Source of the DNA: a virus
Taxonomy: Duplodnaviria; Heunggongvirae; Uroviricota; Caudoviricetes
IMG/VR virus record: IMGVR_UViG_2778261464_000012
Coordinates: 1 to 14,815 of that record
Reading direction: 5' to 3' (one strand)
Length of the DNA stretch: 14,815 nucleotides
Every line of letters starts with the position of its first letter. The stretch's first letter is position 1. Positions 6,689 to 14,815 of this stretch are shown here, piece after piece. A program made the position numbers and the translations under genes. The notes under the pieces are model-generated. The model saw only the letters and a program-made list of their open reading frames with translations. It had not been told where the DNA came from and searched no databases.

Positions 6689-13094
<6,406 letters not shown>

Positions 13095-13099
13095 ATGTT

Positions 13100-13303
13100 T
13101 TGTGTACATCTAAAATGTCACATACAATTGAAAGCAATCGGTGCCGAAAACTCGCGTTGATAATCAGGCTGGAGGAGTACCTAAATTATTAGTTTCACTT
13201 AATTAGGTTGATTAAAAGCACTTACATTTCATTTTACTTGATCATTATTACAATGTAACATTGCAAGCACATACACATTGCCGTTCAAGAAGGAATATCC
13301 AAA
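13100..13303. promoter_or_regulatory. Divergent intergenic control region; candidate location of cos and of the DUF3800-gene promoter
   Basis: About 200 bp non-coding stretch between divergently arranged terS and the DUF3800-like gene. It contains three TTGAT(A/T/C)A motifs and a direct repeat ACATTGC...ACATTGC just upstream of the plus-strand RBS. Exact promoter and cos positions cannot be fixed from sequence alone. Confidence 0.3.
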
Positions 13304-14425
13304 TTGGTAAAAAATGTCTACTTCGACGAATCAGGGTTTACAGGTAATAACTTACTTTCAAAAGATCAGCCTTTTTTTAGTTACGCTGCAGTCGTGACTG
13401 ATGAAGAGGAAAGTAAACAGTTTGTAGATTACATAATACAAAAGTACTCGATCGCAGCCGAAGAGCTAAAAGGTAGCACTCTCGTTAATAGCAAGAGATT
13501 ACAACCAGCCGTAGATGAGATACTTAATCATTTCCGTGGACGTATGCGTGTGGTTGTTAACGAAAAGAAATATGCCCTTTCAGGAAAATTCTTTGAATAT
13601 ATTTTCGAGCCAGTATTAGCAGCTAAAAGCTCAATATTTTACAACCTTAAATTCCACCTATTCATATCCAATATAATGTATTTTTCTTTAATAGCTAAGG
13701 ATGAGTATTCTGAACTATTGCATTCTCGATTTGAAGATTTTTCACGAGGTAAAATATTAGTTAATAGTTTTATCGAACCAGTTATTGGTACTAAAAACTC
13801 TGAAATTATGATGGACATTCATGATTTCGCCAAGCATAACATTTCAATAATTGAAGAGGAATATGAAGGTCTCGAGGGCACTGGGGTTGATAAATGGTTG
13901 TTAGATTTGACAACGACTTCTCTTTATAATCTCTTATGCGATATGAGTAGTAAGTTTGGTACATTGAGAGCTATATGTGATAGTTCAAAACCATTAATTA
14001 CCCAACAAGACGCATTCAATGAGATGATAGGTAATGATGAAATTGTGTTCGAGACCTTTAATAATAAAAAAATCCCGATCACATTCAAACTATCTGAGCC
14101 CATAATCCTTTCTGATTCTAAAGTCACGCATGGTATACAAATTGCTGATGTGATAGCTGCAGCCAGCATTTATGTGCTTAATAAGAAAAAATCGAAAGAA
14201 AGATATCACTCCAAATGGCTAACTCATTTCGAAGATGAGATTTTTTATTGGCAATGTTGTGTTGTTCCCACACCTGAAAATCTTGATCCTAAAAATGTAA
14301 ACAATTATTTGAACAGATATATATTGCAAGAAATTGCTGAACGAAGCAGAAAATCACTACCTGTTTTAGATGATATTGAAAAAGAAATCATGCGAATTTC
14401 CAGAACATTAGCCATGGTGCGTTGA
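13304..14425 (+). CDS. DUF3800-like protein (373 aa), function unknown; candidate phage moron / accessory gene
   Basis: The only long plus-strand ORF not antisense to a structural gene. TTG start at 13304 is preceded by AAGAAGGAA at about 9 nt. The N-terminus VKNVYFDESG and the C-terminal SKVTHGIQIADVIAAA match, by recall, the DESG and GxQxAD signature of DUF3800. It looks AT-richer than the structural genes by eye. Confidence 0.75.
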   Translation: MVKNVYFDESGFTGNNLLSKDQPFFSYAAVVTDEEESKQFVDYIIQKYSIAAEELKGSTLVNSKRLQPAVDEILNHFRGRMRVVVNEKKYALSGKFFEYIFEPVLAAKSSIFYNLKFHLFISNIMYFSLIAKDEYSELLHSRFEDFSRGKILVNSFIEPVIGTKNSEIMMDIHDFAKHNISIIEEEYEGLEGTGVDKWLLDLTTTSLYNLLCDMSSKFGTLRAICDSSKPLITQQDAFNEMIGNDEIVFETFNNKKIPITFKLSEPIILSDSKVTHGIQIADVIAAASIYVLNKKKSKERYHSKWLTHFEDEIFYWQCCVVPTPENLDPKNVNNYLNRYILQEIAERSRKSLPVLDDIEKEIMRISRTLAMVR

Positions 14426-14430
14426 AGTAT

Positions 14431-14473
14431 ATATCCTCATGCTATGTTATTAGCACCAGTAGCATGAGGATAT
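14431..14473 (+). terminator. Inverted repeat downstream of the DUF3800-like gene (possible terminator or protein-binding dyad)
   Basis: ATATCCTCATGCT (14431..14443) and AGCATGAGGATAT (14461..14473) form a perfect 13-bp stem with a 17-nt loop, starting 6 nt after the stop codon. A T-run (TTATTTTT) lies about 14 nt downstream, so it is not a textbook intrinsic terminator. Confidence 0.3.
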
Positions 14474-14815
14474 CATATGTAATTCAATTATTTTTACCAT
14501 GACCAATATATTTAATCAATTAATGATTTGACCTCAATAATTGTTTAGCTATATTAATACATTCTTGAATCCTTTCCTCGCGTATTAGACACGTAGTACT
14601 GCCATTGTCCATCTGGTAGATTGGATTATAGATGCGACCGCAATCACTCTGGAACTGAGGCCGGTAATACTTCACTCCGTTACGTGTAGTTGCCACTTCA
14701 GTACATCCCCAGCAATGAGCCGACAGCCGTGTATTTCTATCTGCGGCTGGATTTCCACTCCGAGCAACTGCCCATTAAGAGTCGTAATCGGTACAGCCCA
14801 GTACTGGATGTTCAT

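Follow-up and report, generated by a model that had tools for sequence, protein, structure and literature searches.

What does a perfect palindrome do when it stands a few nucleotides beyond the stop codon of a phage gene? The question is raised by the stretch of DNA analyzed here (the window), 14,815 nucleotides of a tailed virus of the Caudoviricetes (IMG/VR record IMGVR_UViG_2778261464_000012), in which a strong inverted repeat at 14431-14473 immediately follows a gene of the DUF3800 type. A preliminary description of the window, made from its letters and open reading frames, had noticed the repeat, judged it to be atypical of an intrinsic terminator, and suggested instead that it might be a protein-binding dyad, or a recombination or boundary element marking the end of a cassette.

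The window covers the packaging and head-to-tail part of a prophage. Its genes lie on the minus strand and encode a gpA-type large terminase, a lambda-type portal, a protease-capsid fusion, a tail tube-like protein, and a long tail protein. The DUF3800 gene is reversed relative to these late genes and sits just upstream of the small terminase gene, terS (Table 1). Its exact protein is recorded in 475 assembly blocks, labeled E. coli or "MULTISPECIES Enterobacteriaceae", and close variants are also found in Klebsiella. The TTG start codon is kept in all relatives, as is an AAAGG/AAGGA ribosome-binding motif (RBS) upstream of it. The promoter scan left the candidate -10 hexamer TACAAT (13249-13254) uncalled and found no strong promoter on the plus strand; in three other relatives (L250, L252, and L080), TGATATAAT is present further upstream. 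On the far side of the inverted repeat, remnants of two genes encoding a 90-residue lipoprotein (p90) and a 169-residue protein (p169) occupy 14520-14815, where they have been fused by a deletion. Both genes are intact in L074 (E. coli AREA_C483), L155, and L158, and the intact lipoprotein copies contain the lipobox LLTGC.

In E. coli G3/10, the prophage sits in ybhA beside modABC, has a large serine recombinase, and is broken by insertion sequences, with the DUF3800 gene intact. The sequence beyond 14815, as seen in L066-L073, likewise places the prophage in ybhA beside modABC/acrZ, inserted by a large serine recombinase, and contains an orphan Hcp-DUF1493-STM2901 cluster and a RipA-like octameric membrane protein. 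IS1, IS3, and IS5 have fragmented the prophage in many genomes, the DUF3800 gene remaining identical. A PADLOC scan matched neither the DUF3800 gene nor its neighbor in the P2-like prophage L008 to a defense system. This neighbor (L008 4958-5965) is a function-unassigned gene of 335 residues that precedes DUF3800 in the same orientation, and the two together form an insert with tail genes on one side and tail-fiber genes on the other.

Three other elements of the region are worth recording in their own right. A second perfect hairpin lies at window positions 13065-13094 (AGTCCTCCTGA...TCAGGAGGACT). Read on the minus strand, it precedes TTTTT and, after that, the terS ATG, and its 3' arm includes the terS Shine-Dalgarno AGGAGG; it resembles a terminator or an RBS-sequestering structure placed right before terS. 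This hairpin is present in the closest relatives, being identical in L155 and carrying wobble changes in L158, and is missing at more distant terS loci. The motif CGGTGCCGAAAACTCG, at window positions ~13140-13160 and with GGAGTACCT downstream of it, has been conserved ahead of terS in several relatives whose sequences to either side of it differ, and it may be part of the packaging (cos) region. Between the DUF3800 hairpin and the lipoprotein gene, ~60-130 nt past the DUF3800 stop, stands an 8-nt tandem repeat, TTAATAAT, whose copy number varies (1, 2, or ~8-10) among near-identical prophages (L004, L006, L074, and L078 versus L005 and L077 versus L003).

Table 1. Features of the window around the DUF3800 gene and the inverted repeat (window coordinates).
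Feature	Position	Strand	Evidence and remarks
Small terminase (terS)	12478-13059	-	Start at 13059
Variable cargo region with DUF3800 unit and hairpin (approximate)	13183-14568		blastn homology to relatives with other cargo
Candidate -10 hexamer TACAAT	13249-13254	+	Predicted; aligns with TATAAT in L007 and TGCAAT in L249
Shine-Dalgarno-like AGAAGGA	13288-13294	+	Read from sequence; 9 nt before TTG start
DUF3800 gene	13304-14425	+	373 residues; TTG start; TGA stop at 14423-14425; Pfam PF12686 at 2.2e-10
5' arm of hairpin	14431-14444	+	ATATCCTCATGCTA; paired in minimum-free-energy fold; columns covary with 3' arm in 10 relatives
Loop	14445-14459	+	TGTTATTAGCACCAG; U·G pair possible between outer T and G, with 13 nt then unpaired
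3' arm of hairpin	14460-14473	+	TAGCATGAGGATAT; exact complement of 14431-14444
T5 run	14491-14495	+	Possible distal U-tract; sole T5 run, starts 17 nt past stem
p90 remnant (lipoprotein, C-terminal half)	14520-14696	-	Translation compared with intact L074 7478-7750
p169 remnant (N terminus)	14672-14815	-	Translation compared with intact L074 7761-8270

The repeat consists of two 14-nt arms that are 100% complementary and separated by 15 nt, and its stem starts 5 nt past the DUF3800 stop codon. It had previously been described as a 13-bp stem with a 17-nt loop; the outer coordinates and the perfection of the stem hold, but the count was one pair short. In RNA form, an extra U·G pair (14445/14459) extends the stem to 15 pairs and reduces the loop to 13 nt. 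Of the 14 perfect pairs, five are G-C. The inverted repeat is beyond chance. In 40 dinucleotide-preserving shuffles of the window with loops of 3-20 nt allowed, the longest perfect arm measured 8-12 nt (mostly 8-9), compared with 14 nt in the real sequence. The RNA fold, which had been put forward as a check, returns the same stem in the minimum-free-energy structure: the 86-nt region folds at -27.9 kcal/mol (z = -4.9), a stability reached by none of 200 shuffles, and the isolated hairpin at -20.8 kcal/mol.

The DNA following the stop codon of DUF3800 genes was compared across IMG/VR contigs, metagenomes, two E. coli genomes, and homologues of 52-88% identity (exact look-up). In about five genomic contexts, DUF3800 genes whose proteins are 79-100% identical have a homologous hairpin after them, and every lineage down to ~79% identity has it except L008, L249, L255, and L257. 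The 10 distinct hairpin variants give an alignment of 140 stem cells, 90.7% of which hold standard pairs, compared with at most 52% when the partners are slid by 1-3 columns. Both sides of the pair have changed in 16 stem cells, a number reached in 0 of 500 shuffles, and the covariation score is 0.373 versus 0.238 (0 of 500 shuffles), figures that overstate independence and are not probabilities because the variants are related, with ~5-6 lineages carrying the informative changes. Three pairs switch wholesale between the two main variant groups (U-A/C-G, C-G/U-A, and G-C/A-U), and RNAalifold, run unguided, recovers the same helix with four covarying pairs. Comparison with related phages, also suggested at the outset, thus finds the hairpin conserved and covarying rather than absent. 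As judged from the compensatory switches and the slid controls, both of which are clear, the pairing of the stem is kept by selection.

Whole-region folding energy gave a mixed answer as to which strand carries the structure, with L080 and L001 folding better on the minus strand via flanking pairing, and per-pair wobble counts were therefore used instead. An A·C on the sense strand corresponds to a wobble on the other strand, so that an even split is expected if neither strand is favored. The stem cells without a Watson-Crick pair comprise 10 sense-strand G·U or U·G wobbles and a single A·C, a split that points to the hairpin acting as a structure in the sense-strand RNA. The loop varies freely in length, from ~4-5 nt in L007 and 8 nt in L003 to 15 nt in the window and 19-21 nt in L251, L250, L261, and L080, and no loop sequence is conserved across the 10 variants. 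A loop core (U-R-K-C-A-M) seen in the first six variants was dropped, as it is missing in L250, L251, and L261.

Two of the lineages without a complete hairpin, L008 (7122-7170) and L255 (3622-3660), retain the left arm together with the start of the loop before continuing into unrelated DNA, such that the break falls inside the palindrome. In L008, a canonical terminator is found 12 nt past the homology break. Wider searches with the hairpin itself were largely empty: a pattern scan of viral contigs for the exact window hairpin gave no matches, a 17-base core pattern in the same contigs gave 42 matches (mostly unrelated chance palindromes, plus four known contigs), megablast of the hairpin region against the phage collection gave nothing, and a scan of GTDB species representatives found only homologues of at most 50% identity.

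The hairpin is linked to the gene and not to the site. Six relatives (L155, L158, L162, L177, L183, and L197) share the terS and p90 genes of the window but have different small cargo genes there and no such hairpin. Their homology to the window by blastn stops at 13157-13182 and resumes at 14569-14578, which places the hairpin ~100 nt inside the variable region, the right junction lying within the end of the neighboring ORF. Conversely, the gene and hairpin are found together before unrelated DNA in several other places: beside another terminase in L251, beside icd and an integrase in L250 and L252, between the portal and gpA genes of a P2-like phage in L261, and in a non-phage contig in L080. 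The nucleotide homology shared with L007 extends to 14473 of the window and no further. The earlier idea of a boundary element marking the cassette end is therefore correct in a descriptive sense, in that the conserved part of the DUF3800 module finishes, on its 3' side, with the hairpin, but the hairpin is not the junction itself. A packaging (cos) signal was also considered and rejected, since the hairpin also accompanies the gene at sites that have no terminase.

The DUF3800 gene as such has been captured repeatedly at phage cargo sites. It is found beside gpA-type terS/terL genes in L251, L257, and L259, in the P2-like L008 and L261, and at the icd and integrase site of L250 and L252. It lies divergent to, and upstream of, the small terminase gene in prophages of E. 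coli, Erwinia, and Pectobacterium.

A sense-strand stem-loop just past a gene is where an intrinsic terminator would be expected, yet the hairpin fails as a canonical one. Its loop of 15 nt, or 13 nt with the extra pair, is larger than the usual ~3-8 nt, and no U-tract lies within 0-2 nt of the stem. The terminator scan of the window left 14431-14473 uncalled. The usual tail cut-off under the d'Aubenton-Carafa/TransTermHP weighting is -2.5; the 15 nt after the stem score -2.04, weaker than this cut-off, which ~30% of background positions pass. The initial judgment that the loop and the distance to the T-run are atypical of an intrinsic terminator was thus sound.

The only T5 run begins 17 nt past the stem, and in the predicted window fold the stem is bridged to this U-run by weak helices (GUAU/AUAU and GUUGAA/UUCAAU). 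Similar lower helices can be drawn in L003 and in L007, where the helix reaches up to 22 bp. An extended compound terminator built from such helices was rejected, as its energy gain was equaled with shuffled flanks in 28-74% of trials over five variants. Two properties of the downstream DNA recur among the variants. A T5 run is found 4-17 nt past the hairpin in four independent downstream contexts, compared with 6-8% of background windows, and the ratio of C to G over the 80 nt past the hairpin is 1.83 (top 8% of windows) and exceeds 1 in eight of eight variants; both are weak statistics in AT-rich intergenic DNA, and the C excess is mild and confounded by the convergent coding sequence that partly constrains the downstream region.

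There is another class of 3'-end hairpin to consider. In Rho-dependent E. coli transcripts, a stem-loop at the steady-state 3' end blocks PNPase and RNase II after termination has occurred further downstream (Dar & Sorek 2018, PMC6061677). Such protective stem-loops have neither an adjacent U-rich sequence nor an upstream A-tract (PMC6061677), and the window agrees in both respects, its upstream flank (GCGUUGAAGU) not being A-rich.

The elements found at the same position in more distant homologues bear on what the position is for. In L008 (74% identity, P2-like prophage) and L257 (70%, Erwinia), the stop codon is followed by a textbook GC-rich terminator with a U-tail. L258 (59%, Rahnella) has a large-loop hairpin with U7 directly after it, and L259 (54%, Pectobacterium) has a hairpin of 13 bp that lacks a U-run. 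Unrelated hairpins and canonical terminators thus swap at one position, which argues that the job performed there is the formation of a transcript end.

With the structure of the hairpin, the selection on it, its strand, and its linkage to the gene established, we can consider its role. The hairpin is probably the 3'-end-forming or protecting stem-loop of a moron-like DUF3800 transcription unit, morons being defined by their own promoter and terminator (PMC3594210). The repeat would then be the DNA image of an RNA stem-loop in the DUF3800 sense transcript, located just past the stop codon. Promoter, RBS, ORF, and hairpin together look like a small, self-contained and portable unit, which stands backwards between phage late genes and has been copied into several other prophage and island sites. 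RNA polymerase would stop shortly downstream of the hairpin, either because Rho acts on the C>G stretch, which is untranslated, or with lower efficiency at the U-run 14491-14495, after which 3'->5' exonucleases would trim the transcript back to the base of the stem (~14474). The outcome would be a defined and stable mRNA end, and sense transcription would be kept from running antisense into the convergent phage genes.

This role could be filled in two ways. We give somewhat less than an even chance to the hairpin being the protective structure of a Rho-type end, and regard a genuine but non-canonical intrinsic terminator as a more tentative possibility. We lean slightly towards the protective version because the C>G bias downstream and the stable hairpin without an adjacent U-tract match the transcripts described by Dar & Sorek (PMC6061677).

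Two alternatives also place the structure in RNA. In the first, the hairpin would do more than end the transcript, serving as a substrate, regulator, or partner of the DUF3800 protein. The idea draws on the protein family itself, which has an RNase H-like fold and has been linked to retrons and to Cas12a2 (PMC7736814, PMC10910872), and on the 11 dissimilar RNA motifs (DUF3800-I to -XI) that occur beside DUF3800 genes, several of them followed by terminators and all of unknown function (Weinberg et al. 2017, PMC5737381). The hairpin likewise travels with its gene through about five contexts, and it is a conserved structured RNA beside a DUF3800 gene, a property that does not alone distinguish such a motif from a terminator. 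However, there is no relevant Rfam match to a known RNA family: no DUF3800 family is found in 12900-14815 at E<=5, and across the window and 14 homologous loci no DUF3800 model attains its gathering score. Moreover, the structure is a plain helix without conserved unpaired nucleotides, and L008, L255, L249, and L257 have intact DUF3800 genes with no hairpin or with one arm only. A function specific to the DUF3800 protein is therefore improbable, and it is similarly improbable that the hairpin represents a twelfth, very simple DUF3800-associated RNA, in which the protein would use the 3' stem-loop of its own mRNA as a bound partner, self-regulatory target, or trigger. If this were the case, gene and hairpin would form a two-part protein-RNA system whose job might be anti-phage.

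In the second, the hairpin would be a site of RNase III-type processing or of retroregulation similar to lambda sib; its cleavage would be restricted to longer read-through transcripts and would thereby control the stability of the DUF3800 mRNA. A long, perfect sense RNA helix right past the ORF (14-15 bp, and up to 22 bp in L007) with no adjacent U-tract would be compatible with such a site. RNase III prefers about two helical turns, though, and the conserved helix is just 11-14 bp in most variants, which is short for this enzyme. In addition, the extra flanking pairing is at chance level and nothing specific favors cleavage, making this another improbable reading.

The remaining alternatives act at the level of DNA. 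The first is a recombination element, that is, a decayed integron attC or another single-strand hairpin site that mobilizes a DUF3800 cassette. In its favor, DUF3800 homologues of 40-45% identity do have attC-like sites (TAAC...GCGTTA) straight past the stop codon, and one of them, L015, lies in a Vibrio cassette array in which GCCTAAC repeats every ~475 nt. The conserved module here also consists of RBS, ORF, and hairpin; in L080, L250, and L252 the stem begins with AAC and ends with GTT; and in L008 and L255 homology breaks inside the loop.

Compared feature by feature, however, the hairpin does not behave as an attC relic, and the true attC sites behind the 40%-identical homologues have a quite different appearance. 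The R''/R' boxes (RYYYAAC ... GTTRRRY) are absent from the window, which has TAT...ATA in place of AAC...GTT, and the possible lower stem GTTGAA...TTCAAT has the wrong order for R''/R'. The 14-bp stem is perfect, without extrahelical bases or an unpaired central spacer. attC sites fold as the bottom strand, whereas the wobbles of the hairpin are on the top strand (10 cells versus 1). There is no intI, attI, or cassette array alongside; the neighbors are phage terminase, lipoprotein, and Hcp genes, and the recombinase of the prophage is a large serine recombinase. The cargo boundaries lie ~100 nt away, and the break in L008 and L255, with the left arm and part of the loop kept, is curious but is not evidence for site-specific recombination. 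The recombination element of the preliminary description, lacking R boxes, extrahelical bases, spacer, and integron integrase and wobbling on the top strand, is thus very unlikely.

The integron sites of the distant homologues are an observation of their own. L014, L015, L019, L023, L034, L092, L094, and others have near-identical attC-like sites, TAACAA.GCGCTGC...GCAGAGCGCGGCGTTA, directly past the DUF3800 stop. These homologues come mostly from marine Gammaproteobacteria, L015 being Vibrio ruber. The sites imply that this subfamily of DUF3800 is also an integron cassette gene.

The protein-binding dyad suggested initially would be a double-stranded DNA site bound by a dimeric regulator or a phage protein, for which the perfect symmetry in the window could be taken as support. 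A dimeric operator has conserved half-sites at fixed spacing; here, the half-sites change in a compensatory way and their spacing ranges from ~4 to 21 nt. Where one side alone has changed, the outcome is nearly always a G·U on one strand, and the element follows its gene into unrelated genomes. These properties are incompatible with a fixed dimeric site, and we consider the dyad highly improbable. A dispersed palindromic repeat of the REP or MITE-like type, or a chance palindrome without function, is just as hard to credit even in an AT-rich intergenic region where palindromes are common, since 14 perfect pairs were never reached in shuffles, the covariation shows selected pairing, and the hairpin, rather than having many copies per genome, is single-copy in E. 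coli G3/10, where its offset puts it at 3432312-3432354 of NZ_CP060075; this was 1 genome out of 5426 from E. coli with such similarity, and the others had no copy at E<=1.

In summary, the hairpin is most likely a feature of an ordinary kind whose role is unremarkable, which leaves a small chance of an RNA function specific to the gene. It would mark where the transcript of one cargo gene ends in a decaying prophage of E. coli/Enterobacteriaceae, which matters little by itself. It does, though, illustrate cleanly how a 3' hairpin that is conserved and covaries can escape standard terminator scans, and it helps to define the putative portable unit (promoter, RBS, DUF3800, and hairpin) of a gene repeatedly captured at phage cargo hotspots and, among distant relatives, in integrons. 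It also provides a simple, testable case of whether the association of DUF3800 with RNA is functional or mere transcript architecture.

Among known systems, the likeness to integron attC sites is one of placement: the window hairpin lies directly past a cassette ORF, and true attC sites follow 40-45% homologues of the same protein, but it differs in having no R/L boxes, extrahelical bases, spacer, integrase, or array, and in its strand preference. With the DUF3800-I to -XI motifs (Weinberg et al. 2017; Rfam RF02969, RF02968, and others), it shares being a conserved RNA structure beside a DUF3800 gene, whereas it matches none of their models and amounts to a simple helix whose loops vary freely, and several intact homologues do without it. 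Similar to intrinsic terminators, it is a sense hairpin right past the stop with a U-run downstream, and canonical terminators occupy the same place in L008 and L257; unlike them, its loop is too large, its U-run is 17 nt off, just 5 of its 14 pairs are G-C, it goes uncalled in the scan, and its extension is at chance level.

The hairpin resembles the stem-loops at Rho-dependent 3' ends (PMC6061677) in being a stable sense hairpin just past the gene, with no adjacent U-rich tail or upstream A-tract, a mild C>G bias downstream, and E. coli or other Enterobacteriaceae as host. It differs in its loop of 13-15 nt, which is longer than usual, and in the T5 run that recurs 4-17 nt downstream, which that class does not require; the part played by Rho here is presumed. 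The DUF3800 unit, in turn, differs from phage morons (PMC3594210) in opposing the flanking late genes, in a GC content only slightly below that of its neighbors, and in the putative nature of its promoter and terminator. Similar to morons, it is an extra unit between conserved phage genes, at a place filled otherwise in the six related phages named above and missing from these close relatives, with a candidate -10 (TACAAT, corresponding to TATAAT in L007 and to TGATATAAT in L250, L252, and L080) and a 3' hairpin. Also in keeping with morons, it stays intact while the prophage around it decays, and it recurs in other phages.
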